Positions 30,426-40,402 of a stretch of 64,000 nt of DNA are shown here, piece by piece (the stretch's first letter is position 1; each line of letters starts with the position of its first letter). Source of the stretch: Candidatus Eiseniibacteriota bacterium (lineage in GTDB: Bacteria > Eisenbacteria > RBG-16-71-46 > JABDJR01). The translations under genes were made by a program, and so were the position numbers. The DNA lies in assembly GCA_963783375.1 (NCBI GenBank), contig CAWANH010000029.1, positions 416,001 to 480,000 of the forward strand, given 5' to 3'. Below the pieces are notes generated by a model. It was given only the letters and a program-made list of their open reading frames with translations. It was not told where the DNA came from and did not search any database.

Positions 30426-33341
30426 ATGAACCTGTCAACCGCCCGGCCGGGCGAAACCTGGGTGCGGCGCTTCAAGCGACAGCTTGCCCCCTCGGTCCCG
30501 CCTCTTCCCGTGAACCCCCGGCTCATGATGCTCCTCATCCTGGCTCTTTCCGCGTTTTCCCCCTCCCGGGCATGGACGGCGGAGGCGACGCCGACCTTGG
30601 CGGGACCGCTAACGCCGGCCCCGGCGTGGCTCGACCTGCCCCCCACCCAGCAACGGCTCTGGGAAGATCAGGGGTTGGGCCGCCCCGCCGCTCATCTCCT
30701 GGGGCAGAGCGACCTCCGGGCCGCGGGCATGGTCACCACCCTCCGGGTGGTGGCGATCCTGATCGACTTTCCCGATGTGGCCGCCGACACCGAGGCGCAC
30801 CCGCCCGAGTACTACCGGAAGCTCCTCTTCAGCCGCAACGAGCTTCCCGGAGGTTCGGTGGCCGACTTCCTGTACGAGTCCTCTCATGGCCGGCTCGAGT
30901 TCACCGGGGAAGTGCGTGGCTGGTTCACCGCCTCCTCGAAGCACACCGATTACACCCAGGGGCAGGGAGGGCTGGGCCGGCTCTACCCCAACAACTCGCA
31001 GTTCCTGGCCGAGGAGGCCATTCACCTCGCCGACCCCACCATCAACTTCGCGTACTTCGACGACGAGGGGCCGGACGGCGTCCCCGACTCCGGGGACGAC
31101 GACGAGACCATCGACGGCATCGTGATCATTCATGCCGGCGGCGGGGACGAGCTCCGCTATCGGCCCGATGAGTTCACCGCGGTCCACTGGTGGACGGTGG
31201 CCCCGATCCCGGTGGACGGCGTGTTCGGGCGGTACTTCACCATGAATCCCGAAGACGGGGGGATCGGGATCTTCTGCCACGAGCTCGGCCACCTGATGGG
31301 GCTCCCCGATCTGTACGACAAGGTTTCCCCGCCCAGCGCAGGTATCGGACAGTGGTCGCTCATGTGCGGGGGAATCTCGGTCGGGGCGGCGGGGATTCCG
31401 GTGGATTTCGATGCGTGGTCGAAGATCCGGCTGGGGTTCGTGAACGTGGTGCCTGTCTTCTACGATCGGGACCGGGCGGTCATTCCTCCCAGTTCGGCCA
31501 CGGACAAGGTGTATCGCCTGTGGGGGAACGGAACCAACGGATCGGAGTACTTCCTTCTCGAGAACCGCCGGAAGTCCGGACTGGATCGGGCCCTCCCCGG
31601 GGAGGGGATCATGATCTACCACATCGACGACCGGGTACCGGGCAACGACAGCGCCGAACACTACAAGGTGGCTCTCGAGCAGGCGGACGGTCTCTACCAG
31701 CTCGAGGGGAGAACCGGCTTCATCAACTATGGGGACGCGGGCGATCCGTTTCACGCGGGTGACGTGTTCGCGGCCTACACCCAACCTCCCAGCACCGCCT
31801 ACAACGGCACCGACACCTATGTTTCGGTTTTCGGCATCGAGGGGCCGGATCCCGACGGGACGATGACCGCGAACCTCCACGTGGAGCCCGGACCGGTGGT
31901 CGAGGTGAGCGCGGTGAACATGATCGAGCTGGAGGGAAACGGGGATGGGCTGGTCACCGCCGGCGAGACCGCGGGGATCCTGCCGCGCATCACGGTGTCG
32001 CGGCTGGCCGCGTCCCACCTGCACCTCCATCTCCGGTCCCTGGATAGCCGGGGGGAGATCCTGGATCCGGATTGGGACGCCCTCTCGATTCCGGCGGGAT
32101 CCTCGATCACTCCCGCGAATCCCCTCAGGGTCCGGATCTCCTCGGACCTTCCCAGCGACCCCTATGGCCTTCCCCTGGCCCTCGACCTCTCCTGGGACGA
32201 CGCTCCGGTCCGCCACCTCCCGGTCGAGCTTGGGTTGGGCTCGGTCGTCGGCCGCTCCGACGATTTCGACAGCTCCATCTCGGGGTGGCAGCACGAACCG
32301 GTCCGGTTGACCGCCTTCGATCAGTGGAGCTATGCCCCCGGTATGGGCCGGGACGAGACCCCCGGGTTCCGCTGCGGGAACTATCCCTACGGATATCGCC
32401 AGGGGGCGGATTGCGCGTTGGTGTCTCCTCCGGTGCTGCTTCCCCACGGAGCTGAACTCCTGTTCGATCAGAGCGTGAGCATCTTCCTGCCCGACTCCAC
32501 CAGCGGCCTGGCCGGGGGGGTGATCGAGATCTCGGTGAACGGGGGCGACTGGACCCAGGTCGACCCCGATGGGGGCTACCCGGGCCGCTACGGCGGCACC
32601 AACCCGATCTGGGCGGCGCGCGCGATCTACACCGGACGCATCCTGAGCGGGGCTTGGCACACCGTGCGGGTCGATCTCTCCCAGTACGTGGGCGCGGTGC
32701 GGGTGCGTTTCCGCTTCTTCGCCGAGATGAGCTCGAGCGGGGGGAACGGATGGAGGATCGACAACGTGCGCATCCAGTCCGCCCTCACCCCGGTTCACGT
32801 GATCACCGCCGCGGCCACCGTGGAAGGGGAGGACGTGAGGTTGGCCTGGAAGCTCGGAGAACCCCTTCCTGCCCGCGTCCGGTGGATCAGGGGCCTCACC
32901 GCGGAGAGCGGGACGCCGGTGGGGGATGGCTGGGTGGAGGCGACGGCCGAGGGATCGACCCTCGATACGGGAGGGACCCGGTTCCTTCCCGCCCGCTACT
33001 GGCTGGAGGGGCGAGAACGCGACGGCACCGTCGACCGCTTCGGGCCGGTCCAGGTGGAGGGGGGGGGGCCTGCCCCGCCGGTCGTCCCCTGGCGGGTCGG
33101 CGGGAGCCCCTCTCGCGGGCCGGTCCAGTTCGTTTGGAACGTCCCGCTGCCCGAGGGGGCGGCGCTTCAGGTCTTCGATGTGCGGGGCCGCCTCGTGGCC
33201 GAAACCCCCCTACCCCCGGCCCCCGGGAGCTACACCTGGGGAGGGACGACCTCGAGCGGGACGGCGGCCGCTCCCGGAATCTACTTTGCGCGGATCGCCG
33301 GCGCGGGGCTGAACCCGCTCCGGGTCGTGAGGCTCCCATGA
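30426..33341 (+). CDS. Secreted M6 (immune inhibitor A-like) metalloprotease with FlgD/T9SS-like C-terminal domain
   Basis: ILIDFPD, IIHAG, CHELGHLMGLPDLYD, WSLM Met-turn, EYFLLENR; C-terminal VFDVRGRLV...GIYFARI. Confidence 0.87.
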   Translation: MNLSTARPGETWVRRFKRQLAPSVPPLPVNPRLMMLLILALSAFSPSRAWTAEATPTLAGPLTPAPAWLDLPPTQQRLWEDQGLGRPAAHLLGQSDLRAAGMVTTLRVVAILIDFPDVAADTEAHPPEYYRKLLFSRNELPGGSVADFLYESSHGRLEFTGEVRGWFTASSKHTDYTQGQGGLGRLYPNNSQFLAEEAIHLADPTINFAYFDDEGPDGVPDSGDDDETIDGIVIIHAGGGDELRYRPDEFTAVHWWTVAPIPVDGVFGRYFTMNPEDGGIGIFCHELGHLMGLPDLYDKVSPPSAGIGQWSLMCGGISVGAAGIPVDFDAWSKIRLGFVNVVPVFYDRDRAVIPPSSATDKVYRLWGNGTNGSEYFLLENRRKSGLDRALPGEGIMIYHIDDRVPGNDSAEHYKVALEQADGLYQLEGRTGFINYGDAGDPFHAGDVFAAYTQPPSTAYNGTDTYVSVFGIEGPDPDGTMTANLHVEPGPVVEVSAVNMIELEGNGDGLVTAGETAGILPRITVSRLAASHLHLHLRSLDSRGEILDPDWDALSIPAGSSITPANPLRVRISSDLPSDPYGLPLALDLSWDDAPVRHLPVELGLGSVVGRSDDFDSSISGWQHEPVRLTAFDQWSYAPGMGRDETPGFRCGNYPYGYRQGADCALVSPPVLLPHGAELLFDQSVSIFLPDSTSGLAGGVIEISVNGGDWTQVDPDGGYPGRYGGTNPIWAARAIYTGRILSGAWHTVRVDLSQYVGAVRVRFRFFAEMSSSGGNGWRIDNVRIQSALTPVHVITAAATVEGEDVRLAWKLGEPLPARVRWIRGLTAESGTPVGDGWVEATAEGSTLDTGGTRFLPARYWLEGRERDGTVDRFGPVQVEGGGPAPPVVPWRVGGSPSRGPVQFVWNVPLPEGAALQVFDVRGRLVAETPLPPAPGSYTWGGTTSSGTAAAPGIYFARIAGAGLNPLRVVRLP

Positions 33342-34543
33342 AACGCCAAGCCTGCGTGTTCGCCTTCCTGGTGGCTCTGCTCGCGGTTGCGGTCCAGGCG
33401 GGGGCCGCCGAGTGGGGGTCGGAGAGGGTTCCGGTTCCCGCCCCCTGGGGAAATTCGAGCCTGGGCGTGGCCGGTCAACCGGCGGTGGTCCGCCAGGACG
33501 GCTCCGTCGACCTCGTTTTCCAGAGCTACGTGAGCCCGGAGTCCGCTCGGGTGGTTTTCGCCCGTCGCGATCCAGGCGGGGTGTGGGGCCAACCCGAGAT
33601 CATCTCGCCTCCGGACCGCCTGGCCCGAAATCCGTGCGTGGTGCTGGACCGCCGCGCGTCGCTCCACGTGTTCTGGGAGGACTACACCGAGCCGGGGGGG
33701 GACATCGTGCACCGCGAACGTCTCGCCGACGGCGCCTGGCAGGCCCCGGAGGTGGTGAGCGCGGCTCCCGGCCTCTCTCGTGATCCGGTAGCCGCGGTGG
33801 ATGCCTTCGATCGCGTCAACGTGGTGTGGGTGGACGGGAGGAGCGATGAGCGCGAGATCATGCACGCGGTTCTCGCCCCCGGCCAGGACTGGTCCGCGGG
33901 AGACGTCTTGAGCCCCGGCAGCGACAGCCCCGACGAGCCGAGCGTCACCGCCGACAGCGTGGGGGCGGTGCACGTGGTATGGAGGGATCGGGACGCTTCG
34001 GTCCGGAACGGCTACAGCTCCCAGATCATCTACGTGCGCCTCGGTCCGGAGACCGCCGATCCCCACCCGGTGCGCCTGGTGGATAAGGTCTCCGTTTCCC
34101 AGAGCCCCTTTATCATGGCCGCGCCGGACGGCACCCTGCACCTGGTCTGGGCGGACAACCGTGCCTCCAGCATCGGCATCCGCTCCGACTACTTCGACAT
34201 ATACTACAAACGCTATCTGCCCGGGGTGGGCTGGGGACACGACAAGCAGTTCACCTGGGACGGGACCGACCATGCCCGACCCATCCTGACCCTCGGAGCC
34301 GGGAACACCGTGAACATCTGCTGGGAGGACTACCGGTTCGGCAACCCGGAGATCTACTACCGCCAGATCACTCCCGAGACGGGGTGGGACCCTGATCCAA
34401 GCCGGCTCACCGCCGACGCCGGGGCCTCCCAGGCGCCGGTCCTGGTGTCGGTGCCTGTCGGCGGCCTCCTCCTCCTGTGGGCGGACGCCCGGGGGAGCGG
34501 GGAGTACTCCCTCTATGCCCGCACCGGCAGCATCGCCCCCTGA
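33338..34543 (+). CDS. Secreted repeat protein (BNR/beta-propeller-like)
   Basis: Signal peptide; recurring HVxWxDxR...EIYY motifs; coupled to protease gene. Confidence 0.7.
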   Translation: MKRQACVFAFLVALLAVAVQAGAAEWGSERVPVPAPWGNSSLGVAGQPAVVRQDGSVDLVFQSYVSPESARVVFARRDPGGVWGQPEIISPPDRLARNPCVVLDRRASLHVFWEDYTEPGGDIVHRERLADGAWQAPEVVSAAPGLSRDPVAAVDAFDRVNVVWVDGRSDEREIMHAVLAPGQDWSAGDVLSPGSDSPDEPSVTADSVGAVHVVWRDRDASVRNGYSSQIIYVRLGPETADPHPVRLVDKVSVSQSPFIMAAPDGTLHLVWADNRASSIGIRSDYFDIYYKRYLPGVGWGHDKQFTWDGTDHARPILTLGAGNTVNICWEDYRFGNPEIYYRQITPETGWDPDPSRLTADAGASQAPVLVSVPVGGLLLLWADARGSGEYSLYARTGSIAP

Positions 34544-34696
34544 GCCATCCCCGGGGCTTTTTTCCCCCGAGGCGGGTGAAATACCCCTCGATTCAATCTG
34601 GCTTCCCGGGAACCCCCGGGACGGGAGTCCGGCTTCGAACCCCCATTTCTCGATGCCCGATGCGTTTGCGCGAGTCATCCGTGACGGCGCGTCGCA

Positions 34697-34712
34697 TGGC
34701 ACGGCGGTTGCA
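34697..34712 (+). promoter_or_regulatory. sigma54 (-24/-12) promoter
   Basis: TGGCAC-GGCGG-TTGCA, exact consensus and spacing. Confidence 0.75.
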
Positions 34713-34722
34713 ACTTATACGC

Positions 34723-34888
34723 GGTGGATGACGGAACGAAACCCGGGCCCCGACAAACCGGGTTCTTCCTGCGGTGTTTGTGATAGCTCGTGTTGAGAAG
34801 TTGATCCGCCAGAGTAAACGCCATTCACCGGGCACACGGCATCCGCGGGGAACGGGAGAGGCCGGCCGCAAGGTCGGTCTCTCCTTGT
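34723..34888 (+). ncRNA. Candidate sigma54-dependent small RNA
   Basis: Starts at predicted +1; 5' end pairs with 34819-34829; internal hairpin; ends in 13-bp GCAA-tetraloop hairpin. Confidence 0.45.
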
Positions 34889-34896
34889 GCGACGGA

Positions 34897-34926
34897 TTGA
34901 CACCCCCTGATCCCGCCTGATACGTT
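34897..34926 (+). promoter_or_regulatory. sigma70 promoter for sppA
   Basis: TTGACA-N18-TACGTT with TG extension. Confidence 0.6.
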
Positions 34927-34987
34927 GCGCGTTCGCGACCCGGGCGAACGTCCCCGCGCGCCGCACTCACCGTCCTGGGTAACCTCC

Positions 34988-35869
34988 ATGGCCAGTCGGA
35001 AAACAGGTCTCTTGCTCGGGTGTCTCCTCCTCGCGGCGATGGTCGTGATTGCGGTGGCGTCCCTGTCCATCTTCGTGGCCGGACCGTGGGTGGGAGGGAG
35101 CCTCCCGCTGATGGCCGGCGGAAAGGTGGGGCTGGTGGTGCTGGAAGGGCCGATCGGGCCGTCCCGCGCCCTGGTGCGGGAGTTGGACGCCAACCGGAAC
35201 GACGCCTCCATCAAGGCGGTGGTGTTGCGGGTGAACAGTCCCGGGGGTGAAGTCGCCCCGTCGCAGGAGATCCACGACGCCGTGCTCCGGCTGTCCCGGG
35301 AGAAGCCGGTGGTGGCCTCGTTCGGCTCGGTCGCCGCCTCCGGCGGCTACTACGCGGCGATTGCCGCTGATTCCATCCTTGCCGACCCCGGCACGCTCAC
35401 CGGGAGCATCGGCGTCATCTTCTCCTATCCCACCGTGGAGCGCCTGCTGGACAAGGCGGGGATCCAGTGGCAGGTCTACAAGAGCGGGGCGCTCAAGGAC
35501 ATGGGCACCTTCACGCGGGAACCGACCGAGGAGGAGGCGGCGGTTTTCGACGGGCTGGTGATGGACGTCTACGATCAGTTCGTGACCGCGGTGGCCGAGG
35601 ACCGGGAGTTGGACCGCGACCGCGTTCTCGCCATGGCCGACGGCCGGGTCTTCACCGGCCGCCAGGCCGTCGAACTGGGGCTGGTAGACGGGATCGGCGA
35701 CCTCCACGCCGCGGTCGGCATGGCGGCACGGATGGCCGGTCTGTCCGGGGAGCCGCAGGTGGTCCGGAAAACCCGTCCCCGTATTCCCATTCTCGACGTC
35801 CTCGACCAGTTCCTGGGCGACCACGCCCGTTCCGCCTCCTCGCCCCGCCTCGAGTACCGCTGGCGCTGA
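34988..35869 (+). CDS. sppA: Signal peptide peptidase SppA (S49, short form)
   Basis: LRVNSPGG, KPVVAS, AASGGYY, TLTGSIGV, KSGALKD, ADGRVFTGRQA. Confidence 0.93.
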   Translation: MASRKTGLLLGCLLLAAMVVIAVASLSIFVAGPWVGGSLPLMAGGKVGLVVLEGPIGPSRALVRELDANRNDASIKAVVLRVNSPGGEVAPSQEIHDAVLRLSREKPVVASFGSVAASGGYYAAIAADSILADPGTLTGSIGVIFSYPTVERLLDKAGIQWQVYKSGALKDMGTFTREPTEEEAAVFDGLVMDVYDQFVTAVAEDRELDRDRVLAMADGRVFTGRQAVELGLVDGIGDLHAAVGMAARMAGLSGEPQVVRKTRPRIPILDVLDQFLGDHARSASSPRLEYRWR

Positions 35870-36811: not shown

Positions 36812-37843
36812 ATGAATGCGGTCCCTCTCCGGCAAGCGCGCCTGTTCCCCGGATCCGGCCTTCGCGCCGGGATCGCCGCCGCCGCGGCGACCGCCGTGCT
36901 GCTCGCCTCGGCCGTGCCCGCGTTTGCGGTGGACAAATACGCCGCGGAATTCCTCAAGATCGGCGTAGGGGCGCGCGCCCTGGGCATGGGCGGCTCCTTC
37001 GTCTCCATGGCCGACGACGCCAGCGCCGCCTACTGGAATCCCGCCGGCCTCGTGCATCTCGAGTCCCGGGAAGCGCTGGGGATGCACGCCAGCCAGTTCG
37101 GGGGAGTGGAGGCCCATGACGTCCTCGGCGTGGTGTCCCCGATCGAGGCGGGAGGGCGCCGGGCGGCGATCGGCGTCACCGTGATTCGTCTCGCCGTGGA
37201 CGACATCAAGGTGACCAAGGACGCCAAGATCGGCGAGGATGAGAACGGAAACCCCATCATCGACCCCAATCGGATCCAGACCAAGAGCGCTTACGATCTC
37301 GCCATGCTCCTCTCCTACGCCCGGGGATTGGGTGATCACTGGGCGATGGGGGTGAATCTCAAGCTGGTCCGTCAATCCCTGGTCGGCGAGGGAGCGAGCT
37401 TCGGGATCGGGACCGACCTGGGAATCCTCTATCAGGCCAACCCCAATCTCGGGTTCGGCGTGCGTCTGGCCGACATCACGACCACCCGGCTCTACTGGGA
37501 CACCGGACGGCGGGAGACGGTGTCTCCCACCGTCACTCTGGGTGCGCACACCACCCGGGAGATCGAGTCCCTCCAGGGAAGCTTGAGCCTCGGCCTGGAC
37601 GCCGCCTTCGCTTTCGAGGGGCAGACCGGCGATCAGTTCGACAGCGGGAGCCTGTCCGGCAATCTCCTTCCCGGGGCGGAGTACTGGTTCCGTCACACCG
37701 TGGCCCTGCGCCTGGGATCCGACGGCGGCGATTTCACTGCGGGGGCGGGGGTGCGCTACAAGCGGATCGGCGCCGATTATGCCTACCTGTCCCACCCAGA
37801 GTTGGACGCGACCCACCGGGTGAGCGCACTGATCCGATTCTGA
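36812..37843 (+). CDS. PorV/PorQ family outer membrane barrel (T9SS-associated)
   Basis: FLKIGVGARALGMGG, DDASAAYWNPAGL, C-terminal THRVSALIRF. Confidence 0.8.
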   Translation: MNAVPLRQARLFPGSGLRAGIAAAAATAVLLASAVPAFAVDKYAAEFLKIGVGARALGMGGSFVSMADDASAAYWNPAGLVHLESREALGMHASQFGGVEAHDVLGVVSPIEAGGRRAAIGVTVIRLAVDDIKVTKDAKIGEDENGNPIIDPNRIQTKSAYDLAMLLSYARGLGDHWAMGVNLKLVRQSLVGEGASFGIGTDLGILYQANPNLGFGVRLADITTTRLYWDTGRRETVSPTVTLGAHTTREIESLQGSLSLGLDAAFAFEGQTGDQFDSGSLSGNLLPGAEYWFRHTVALRLGSDGGDFTAGAGVRYKRIGADYAYLSHPELDATHRVSALIRF

Positions 37844-37883: not shown

Positions 37884-39116
37884 ATGAAGCGAGTGATGGC
37901 ATTCGCCCTGGCCGGCGGCCGTACCCGCGGGCTCTCCGTCCTCTCCCAGCCCCGATCGGTCGCCGCCGTCCCCTTCGCCGGCAAGTTCCGGCTCATCGAT
38001 TTCACCCTCTCCAACTGCGTCAACTCCGAGATCTTCCACGTGGAGGTTCTGGCCCAGTACGCTCCTCTCTCGCTGGCCCAGCATCTGGGACGGGGGGAGC
38101 CGTGGGATCTGAACCGACGGGAGGGCGGGGTTCGGATCCTTCAGCCTTACGCCCGGCAGGAAGGGGCCCGGTGGTACGAGGGAACCGCCGACGCCCTGCG
38201 GCAGAACCTGGACGTGCTCGAGAACTCCGGGGCGGAGTGGGTCTTCGTGCTGTCCACGGACCTGATCTACAAGATGGACTACTCCTGGATGCACGAGCAG
38301 CACCTGGAGACCGGGGCACGGGTGACCCTGGCGGTGGGCCAGGTTCCCTACGGGGAAACCGAACACTTCGGCATGCTTCGGATCGACGGGGAAGGGAGGA
38401 TCTCCGGTTTCCAGGAGAAGCCGGAGGCCACCGACTTCGATCGGGCGTTCATGGGGGTCTATCTCTTCGACAGCGCCTTCTTGAAGCGGATTCTCCAGGA
38501 GAACGAGGACCCCAACCTGATCCTGGACATTCTGCGGCCCTATCTCGGGGACCCGGCGGTGGTCCGGGCGTACACTTTCGGCGGTTACTGGGACGACGTA
38601 GGCTCGATCCCGCGCTACTTCCGGGCCCACCAGCGACTCCTGGGGGACGACCCCGCCCCGAACCTCCACGACCCCGGCTGGCGCATCTACACCCGGAGTG
38701 AGGAGATGTCCCCCGTCCTCTTCCATGCCGGTTCCGAGGTTCAGGACAGTCACCTGAGCAACGGCGCGGTGATCGCGGGACGGGTCGAACGGTCGGTGAT
38801 CTCCCCCGGGGTCTATGTGGGCCCGGGGGCGGTGGTGCGGGACGCGATTCTCCTGAACGGAACCACGGTGGGAGCGGGAGCCACGGTGGAGCGCGCGGTG
38901 GTGGACAAGAACGTGGTGATCGGAAACGGGGCGCGGGTGGGCCGGCGGGACGCCGGCGCGGAGAGCGGAGTCCCCGAACTCATGGGGATCACCCTGGTGG
39001 GGAAGTGGGCGCAGGTCGACGAGGGGTCCGAGATCGCGGCGGGGACGCTGATTCCTCCCGGCGAGGCGATCTCCGCCCAGGCGTACCACCTTCGCATGGG
39101 GGAAGCGCGGCAGTGA
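37884..39116 (+). CDS. GlgD-like ADP-glucose pyrophosphorylase subunit
   Basis: AVPFAGKFRLIDFTLSNCVNS, WYEGTADAL, left-handed beta-helix; lacks GxGxRL/RAKP and SGDH motifs. Confidence 0.75.
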   Translation: MKRVMAFALAGGRTRGLSVLSQPRSVAAVPFAGKFRLIDFTLSNCVNSEIFHVEVLAQYAPLSLAQHLGRGEPWDLNRREGGVRILQPYARQEGARWYEGTADALRQNLDVLENSGAEWVFVLSTDLIYKMDYSWMHEQHLETGARVTLAVGQVPYGETEHFGMLRIDGEGRISGFQEKPEATDFDRAFMGVYLFDSAFLKRILQENEDPNLILDILRPYLGDPAVVRAYTFGGYWDDVGSIPRYFRAHQRLLGDDPAPNLHDPGWRIYTRSEEMSPVLFHAGSEVQDSHLSNGAVIAGRVERSVISPGVYVGPGAVVRDAILLNGTTVGAGATVERAVVDKNVVIGNGARVGRRDAGAESGVPELMGITLVGKWAQVDEGSEIAAGTLIPPGEAISAQAYHLRMGEARQ

Positions 39117-40402
39117 GCGGGGTCTATACCATGATTCTGGCCGGCGGCGTAGGAAGCCGACTCGCCGTGCTCACCGAGCAGCGGGCCAAGCCCGCCGTTC
39201 CCTTCGGCGGGAAGTTCCGGATCATCGATTTCGCCCTCTCCAACTGCGCCAACAGCGGGTTCTTCGACGTCGGTCTCCTCACCCAGTACCGTCCCATGTC
39301 CCTGATCGAGCATGTGGGAACCGGCCGGACCTGGGACCTGGACCGGAGCCTCGGGGGTCTTCAGGTGCTTCAGCCCTACCTGGAAGCGGAGTCCGGGGAC
39401 TGGTACCAGGGAACGGCGGACGCGGTCTACCGGAACCTCCTCCAGGTGACCCAGCGCGCGGTGGACGACGTGGTCATCCTTTCCGGCGATCACGTCTACG
39501 CCATGGACTATCGCCCCATGCTCGACTTTCACCGCGAGCACCGGTTTCCGGCCACGGTGGCCGTGACCCCGATTCCGCCCGAGATCACCCACCAGTTCGG
39601 GATCGTGCAGACCAATTCCCGGGGTCATATCACCGGCTTCCAGGAGAAGCCCCGGGAGGCCCGGGGGAACCTGGCCTCGATGGGAATCTACGTGTTCCGT
39701 CGCGACACCCTGATCCGGCTCCTTCAGGAATCCGCCGCCGACCCCGCCTCGAGGAACGATTTCGGGAAGGACATCTTCCCCCGGCTCATCGAGGTGGCCG
39801 ACGTGGGGGCCCACACCTTCGACGGCTACTGGCAGGACATCGGCACCGTGGAGGCGTTCTACGACGCCAACATGAAGCTCCTCGATCCCGACCACAGCCT
39901 CATTCTCTCCCACCCCTCGTGGCCGGTTCGAACGCCCAGCACCGACGCTCCTCCCGCCCGGGTGGTGGGCCGGGGACGGGTGTCGCGGAGCCTGGTGGCC
40001 AACGGGGCGGTGGTGCGGGGCCGGGTGGAAAACTCCATCCTGTTCCCCTGGGTGCGGGTGGAGGACGGAGCCGAGGTCCGGGACTCGATCCTGATGAACG
40101 AGGTGCATGTCCACCCCGGGGCCTCGGTGGTCCGGGCGGTGCTGGACAAGCGGGCCGAGGTGTTTCCCGGGGCGCGCGTGGGAGGGGAGGGCGCCGGCGT
40201 TTCCAACCTCGCCATGCCCGAGTTGCTCTGCACCGGCCTCACCGTGATGGGGAAGGACGTGGTGGTGGGGGAAGGGGTGACGGTGGGACGAAACGCCTGG
40301 GTGGGGGGGCGCCATGTGGTGGCCCCCGGCGCCGACGTTCCGGACGGCGGATACCTCGAAGGGAAGCTGCTCCGCCCCGGAGCCAAGCTCCGATCCGGCT
40401 GA
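39113..40402 (+). CDS. glgC: Glucose-1-phosphate adenylyltransferase
   Basis: [59 protein letters not shown]. Confidence 0.93.

Follow-up and report, generated by a model that had tools for sequence, protein, structure and literature searches.

Organization of the locus

The window, by which we mean the whole 64,000-nt stretch of Candidatus Eiseniibacteriota DNA analysed here, contains a predicted non-coding transcription unit located between a gene that stops at position 34543 and sppA (34988-35869), the latter named from a Peptidase_S49 domain match; all features described for this locus lie on the forward strand. The unit begins with a sigma54-type -24/-12 promoter motif, TGGCACGGCGGTTGCA, at 34697-34712, which agrees with the consensus at 12 of 12 positions and from which a transcription start near 34723 is predicted. 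The motif had been pointed out in a first-pass annotation of this DNA, and its genome-wide occurrence is beyond chance, with five occurrences of the strict form in 4.7 Mb (expected, 0.15) and 13 of TGGCAC-N5-TTGC (expected, 0.95; 0-7 occurrences at other spacings). Furthermore, the genome encodes one rpoN and yields 30 matches to PF00158, 24 of them above 200 bits; together with the conservation of the motif described below, these genes bear out the annotation's view of a self-contained, sigma54-driven unit without a gene of its own. The annotation had also left room for an activator site at 34550-34690. Within this interval, at 34560-34588, we identified a candidate activator (enhancer) site: an imperfect C4/G-rich palindrome and a repeat, which precede the -24 element by 135-110 nt and contain columns invariant in all seven family-f1 loci aligned.

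Downstream of the predicted start, the 5' leader (34723-34761) is unconserved, varying from 2 to 148 nt across 70 loci, and is likely trimmed off or dispensable, dispensability being suggested by the predicted start in family f18, which sits 2 nt before the conserved portion of the RNA. The leader hairpin AACCCGG/CCGGGTT was found at 34740-46/34758-64, where the annotation had placed it. Its proposal that the first 11 nt of the transcript (34723-34733) pair with 34819-34829 fared less well: the complement exists and the duplex is worth -14.7 kcal/mol, but its ensemble probability is about 0 and a similar pairing occurs in only one of six family relatives, and it was rejected as the conserved fold. 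The conserved structure is instead a rod at 34762-34853, absent from the annotation, comprising a closing stem and downstream duplex of the 6S RNA type and a cap in which a loop takes the place of the 6S bubble and apical arm; a UGAUCC motif and the terminal loop form a near-invariant segment at 34802-34816.

The rod is followed by a 13-bp GC-rich hairpin with a GCAA loop (34855-34890), also as annotated, whose stem (34855-34884) is exceptionally stable (z -5.9, with 0 of 200 shuffles reaching it) and which is followed by a weak U tail; the modelled hairpin is likely an intrinsic terminator. As the annotation had further indicated, a separate sigma70-type promoter precedes sppA (34897-34926), consisting of TTGACA at 34897-902 and an extended -10, TG-a-TACGTT, at 34918-26. 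A downstream TTGAC is present in seven of eight family loci compared with none of eight on the other strand, and sppA is not the downstream neighbour in most other families. We also considered a small protein gene and rejected it: a conserved ORF with a ribosome-binding site is absent, any such ORF occurring in 6 of 70 predicted transcripts.

Elsewhere in the window, two tandem GlgC-like nucleotidyltransferase genes occupy 37884-40402, the first combining NTP_transferase with hexapeptide repeats, and the regions 30426-34543 and 36812-37843 encode an M6 peptidase with a FlgD-like tail, a 401-aa secreted-looking unannotated protein and a PorV-like gene product, a set resembling cargo and a component of type IX secretion.

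Conservation of the RNA and its promoter motif

A DNA search for relatives was positive in 13 of 41 genomes, all of which retain the promoter motif, a core of ~92 nt, the sppA promoter and, after the core, a terminator-like hairpin; the leader and the annotation's 5' pairing are not conserved. Covariance models were built from 11 (R1) and 41 (R2) sequences of the short RNA, and from full-length 6S genes of the lineage (R3). R1 matched 85 of 151 genomes of the class, at one place each, and R2 matched 113 of the 151 Ca. Eisenbacteria genomes at E<=0.05 (110 at E<1e-5), with none in families f14, f15, f16, f8, f7 and f11 among the genomes sampled. At the sppA loci searched in 10 genomes without a match, nothing exceeded 16.5 bits. 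A pattern scan of GTDB returned 63 loci, 26 of them labelled Eisenbacteria; of the other 37, 15 were confirmed by R1 and 22 were chance matches. Eight further confirmed loci led to a second small phylum, where R2 gave strong matches in 29 of 31 genomes. R2 found none in five genomes of other named groups, confirmed 0 of 17 pattern matches in viral contigs, and of the metagenome scans one yielded no copies and another five of the f9 type. Counts over related genomes, here and below, are not independent observations.

Within the 41-row alignment, 18 of 32 pairs show changes on both sides and 86% of cells are paired, a value reached by 0 of 500 shuffles and compared with 37-48% in slid controls; these pairing figures lean towards the structure, since it was derived from the same alignment. 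Overall, the terminal stem is the best-conserved part of the rod. Within each of the two large families f9 and f10, conservation is higher in the loop than in the stems: a 20-nt stretch beginning with UGAUCC is invariant among all 27 f9 loci and shared by 22 of 24 f10 loci, and it differs between families. Homologous rods measure 87-106 nt (~92 nt in the window) and end in a loop. The window copy is a weak folder among them, being not unusually stable alone (z -1.1), with an alternative fold involving the leader 0.6-1.0 kcal/mol lower than the rod in this genome; the probability of its closing stem is 0.14 in the full window transcript and exceeds 0.5 at 57 of 70 loci. As judged from these sequence comparisons, the short RNA is real and conserved across two phyla.

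The promoter motif is conserved along with the RNA. Omitting two loci with too short an upstream sequence (L014 and L084) and a weak model match dropped as spurious (L105), we found a motif matching at least 9 of 12 positions in the 200 nt preceding 68 of 70 class loci (between -28 and -174), compared with 4/70 on the reverse strand, 3/68 further upstream, 8/69 downstream and 57/1400 in shuffles. It is likewise present upstream of 25 of 25 short-RNA loci in the second phylum, and upstream of 0 of 23 housekeeping 6S genes. With rpoN detected in 145 of 151 class genomes and all 31 second-phylum genomes, the conserved -24/-12 motif, the sigma factor and activator genes are all in place at the sequence level, as expected of a sigma54-dependent RNA. 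Tandem copies of the short RNA were observed in G169 (L179) and G158 (L189), those of G169 each having their own sigma54 motif. Among families without a short-RNA match, f15 and f16 usually carry two divergent rpoN copies per genome, and f14 carries one lower-scoring copy.

Relationship to 6S RNA

No match at the Rfam gathering threshold was found in the window, so that an Rfam search, which the annotation had proposed, recognised no sRNA family; a search of 34500-35050 at E<=10 gave three chance matches and none to 6S/SsrS (RF00013) for the window copy. In relatives, RF00013 does match the short RNA weakly. At three loci (25-29 bits, cmscan), homologues align to model positions 1-~50 and ~146-187, with the 83-95 positions between them replaced by 4-15 nt; the closing stem and the presumed region of the pRNA start are kept, and the '-35' arm is lost entirely, the bubble for the most part. 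None of the short RNAs reaches the RF00013 cut-off of 46.4 (best homologue, 32.6 bits), and all 17 RF00013 matches in the 31 second-phylum genomes are short RNAs. In the opposite direction, of 27 loci given to it, R1 matches 14 full-length or yraN-type 6S loci (E<=1, best 32 bits), and R3 matches the window rod (22.6 bits, E 1.7e-4) as well as each of five other short copies presented to it, in alignments resting mainly on the terminal stem. Pairwise, the window rod scores 52.6 against the 6S of its own genome, above the shuffled maximum of 47.2; in the comparison with E. coli 6S, its score stays within the shuffled maximum.

The geometry also appears similar. In 71 of 72 loci, 35-38 nt separate a conserved U from the closing-stem anchor; the corresponding distance to U44 of E. 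coli, the site of pRNA initiation (PMC8876501, available sections), is 38 nt. In the window, this U lies at 34805, base 44 of the rod, a register uncertain by ~4 nt: a 196-nt full-length 6S from G059 (L316, 65.4 bits) has the GGCUGAUCC motif of the short RNA at its duplex/bubble junction, in an alignment shifted by 4 nt. This copy and L315 of G133 are extra full-length 6S genes located on short contigs.

Hence the short RNA has the closing-stem sequence and pairing, the downstream duplex length and the duplex/bubble-junction motif of 6S. It differs in measuring 87-106 rather than ~180-200 nt with a central bubble, in lacking the apical '-35' arm, in scoring below the family cut-off, in being preceded by a sigma54 motif, and in lying outside the zapA/rny/ymdB neighbourhood, where the zapA-ymdB locus is occupied by a full-length copy. 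On length, arm and cut-off it falls outside the 6S family, yet it is homologous to it and may work similarly. On sequence grounds, we conclude that the unit encodes a conserved paralogue of 6S RNA, about half its usual length, downstream of a sigma54 promoter motif. The annotation's reading as an sRNA therefore stands insofar as the unit is real, conserved and non-coding, but not as a generic sRNA. GlmY, Qrr and NrsZ are sigma54-dependent sRNAs with a -24/-12 promoter and their own terminator. The window RNA shares this type of promoter motif and a likely terminator of its own, but it has no Rfam match and is 6S-derived, and base-pairing sRNAs of that kind are consequently not the best model for it.

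The window genome possesses three 6S-type copies, of 181, 155 and 92 nt, two with sigma54 motifs. The longest, the housekeeping 6S (G000:C29:533224-533404, minus strand; 80 bits, cmscan), is flanked by what we take, by similarity, to be zapA-like and ymdB-like genes. The second (G000:C17:21819-21973, minus strand), convergent with yraN, scores 49.6 bits, above the Rfam cut-off, and has a sigma54-type motif 45 nt upstream; this yraN-linked type occurs in f1, f5, f7 and f18, with the motif at 10 of 11 loci. A whole-genome RF00013 filter missed the housekeeping copy, which BLAST/nhmmer and cmscan found, and for this reason whole-genome blanks are to be taken as 'not found' only. With this proviso, 140 of 151 class genomes yielded a full-length 6S, as did 0 of 31 second-phylum genomes by RF00013 and R3, where only the short RNA matched; nor was a 6S seen at the zapA-rarA-rny-ymdB locus in the five genomes of that phylum examined. 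A similar situation was encountered in the Eisenbacteria genus g26, with full-length 6S in 0 of 6 genomes by R3 and the short RNA in 9 of 9. At four g26 loci (L304-L307), all that is left of 6S between zapA and rny is a short piece of its terminal stem, which points to loss of the housekeeping gene. One 168-nt R3 match in G186 was discarded, as it resembles coding sequence.

Additional RNAs with a 6S closing stem were also noted. Six loci of f9 (L187, L188, L190-L193) encode RNAs of ~103 nt in which the stem is capped by two small hairpins and no sigma54 motif is present; other capped variants are L182/L183 (f17, 94 nt), L185, L186, L189 and L195. In the phylum of G204, 6 of 121 genomes contain 85-89-nt 6S-stem hairpins without a sigma54 motif (L296-L301), and G217 of that phylum also has a full-length 6S after zapA (L308). 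Hairpins that combine the 6S stem with different caps, and have no sigma54 motif, indicate that the stem can be reused.

Given scores below the Rfam cut-off and the weak fold in this genome, the short RNA might be taken for a decaying 6S duplicate without function. This is almost certainly wrong: one copy is present in most genomes of two phyla, with compensatory changes, invariant loops and a conserved promoter, and the covariation and spread already largely refute it.

A number of described RNAs resemble this form in part. Like 6S-2 of Bacillus subtilis, it accompanies a housekeeping 6S as an additional gene of the 6S type (PMC8876501, available sections), but such second paralogues are full length, whereas those found here are graded (181, 155 and 92 nt), two with sigma54 motifs. 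Engineered B. subtilis 6S-1 derivatives (6S78 and 6S82cp) also lack the -35 region, and bind and cycle (PMC8876501, available sections); these artificial RNAs keep both bubble strands between two helices and drop the terminal stem, whereas in the short RNA the terminal stem is retained and an upstream helix is absent. 6S-Flavo (RF01685) is a 6S-related model of comparable size (~108 positions), but it matched none of five genomes at E<=1, and its rows start with the bubble and extend over the apical arm, which the short RNA lacks (PMC2864571, available sections). Ms1 and CoRP bind RNA polymerase without being specific for the sigma70 holoenzyme; these actinobacterial RNAs measure ~300 and ~500 nt (PMC9130861, PMC11077062, available sections). 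6S RNAs are described as sigma70-holoenzyme decoys of ~180-200 nt, with ~160 nt among the shortest (PMC9130861, available sections), and one ssrS has an ECF-type rather than an RpoN promoter (PMC13492112, available sections). The short RNA is not mentioned in the available parts of a 2026 language-model survey and a 2026 review, and no description of such an RNA was found in Rfam or the open literature searched, which covers the core 6S literature incompletely; as far as searched, the half-length form is undescribed.

Possible functions of the short RNA

With the terminal stem, helix P2 and presumed start region kept and the sigma70-reading arm lost, the short RNA could act as a sigma54-induced, weaker and less sigma70-selective decoy of RNA polymerase, a reading that we give an even chance of being correct. 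An enhancer-binding protein would activate sigma54-RNA polymerase at 34697, and the transcript would be trimmed to a rod of ~90-105 nt, which would enter the downstream channel through its 6S-type downstream duplex and beta/beta' contacts; the terminal loop would take the place of the melted bubble. Because the '-35' arm, which sigma70 region 4 recognises, is absent, binding of the rod should be weaker and less selective for sigma70 than that of ordinary 6S. The polymerase could then synthesise a short pRNA starting at about U44 (34805), and would be released. The expected effect is a temporary draw-down of general transcription while the sigma54 signal is on, adding to the housekeeping 6S or, in some lineages, replacing it.

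Studies of other 6S RNAs bear on several of these steps. Binding of 6S to the housekeeping holoenzyme relies on a '-35'-like region of the apical arm and the '-10'-like 3' bubble, helix P2 of the RNA contacts beta/beta', and the terminal stem is dispensable for binding; 78-82-nt variants of B. subtilis 6S-1 without the -35 region bind ~10-fold more weakly, and pRNA synthesis and release still take place (PMC8876501, available sections). 6S also binds core polymerase and the sigma38 holoenzyme more weakly (PMC1874619). Retention of the short RNA where full-length 6S was not found (the second phylum and g26) likewise favours a decoy. Against it stand the lack of an upstream helix, the loss of most of the 3' bubble with its -10-like element, the concentration of conservation in the dispensable stem, the competing fold in this genome, and the differently capped 6S-stem hairpins that have no sigma54 motif. 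If the decoy reading is correct, a natural form of ~95 nt without the sigma70-reading arm, found in two phyla behind a sigma54 motif, would represent a natural test of a minimal 6S, and would connect global sequestration of polymerase with activator-dependent transcription by sigma54. The distribution of the RNA suggests that short forms overlooked by Rfam may be present in lineages regarded as '6S-less'. Also, the three graded paralogues of one genome could be compared in vitro, with no culture needed.

The best-conserved element of the rod, its terminal stem, is the one that is dispensable for polymerase binding (PMC8876501, available sections), and may thus be a module for processing or stability. 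This observation is consistent with a different explanation, in which the 6S-derived stem is a processed, stable chassis whose loop binds another protein or G-rich ribosome-binding sites of mRNAs, making the RNA a trans-acting sigma54 sRNA. The loop is family-specific and C-rich, and other 6S-stem RNAs with unrelated caps exist. Such a chassis would have no need to keep the 44-nt distance and the P2/bubble motif, however, and the CCUCC anti-Shine-Dalgarno core occurs in no family's loop, the nearest being CCUC in f9; pairing with the genome's own 6S showed no cognate preference either (13 pairs). Overall, we consider this explanation possible but unlikely.

The sigma54 motif at 93 of the 95 loci scored, together with the loss of the sigma70-specific arm, raises the further possibility of a 6S for sigma54, binding sigma54-RNA polymerase (or core) specifically and exerting negative feedback on the sigma54 regulon that produces it. 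Binding of the -12 element by sigma54 involves a fork junction, which the duplex-to-loop junction of the rod resembles. In addition, families without a match (f14, f15, f16 and f8) have a lower-scoring RpoN, usually duplicated in f15/f16, but this pattern may reflect phylogeny or model sensitivity, and f6, f7 and f11 combine an ordinary RpoN with at most one weak match. Furthermore, no GG-N10-GC mimic is conserved across families (a candidate promoter mimic in the RNA was confined to f10 and rejected), no arm is long enough for the -24 reading head in the 6S orientation, and retention in place of the housekeeping 6S fits sigma70 binding better. Specific sigma54 binding is accordingly quite unlikely in our judgement. 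We would assign a similarly low probability to the broader scenario that 6S has expanded into a toolkit of polymerase decoys, the half-length form being the first '6S for sigma54', made on an activator signal, trapping sigma54 holoenzyme or core as feedback, and outlasting the housekeeping 6S in one phylum.

Genes downstream of the RNA offer one more alternative to the polymerase decoy, namely a cis-acting role as leader or attenuator of the following operon, be it of microcompartment genes or sppA. Directly downstream and on the same strand, BMC shell genes are found at 24 and a PduL-type gene at 22 of 97 loci, and sppA lies within 1.5 kb at 37 of 97; the nearly isoenergetic alternative leader fold in this genome and the weak U tail would also suit a leader. 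Conversely, the kind of downstream gene is not fixed (BMC, PduL, sppA, OPT-like transporter and PfkA), a second promoter (TTGAC) follows the RNA at 25 of 96 loci against 7 on the other strand, the tandem G169 copies have separate sigma54 motifs, leaders are unconserved, and the RNA is homologous to 6S. A cis-acting role is therefore very unlikely. Independent of this question, most families and the second phylum have a microcompartment operon (BMC, EutN and PduL-type genes) downstream of the RNA (L087, L205, L088 and others), which is likely the ancestral neighbourhood of the short RNA; in the window genome, BMC and EutN genes are located on contig C3.
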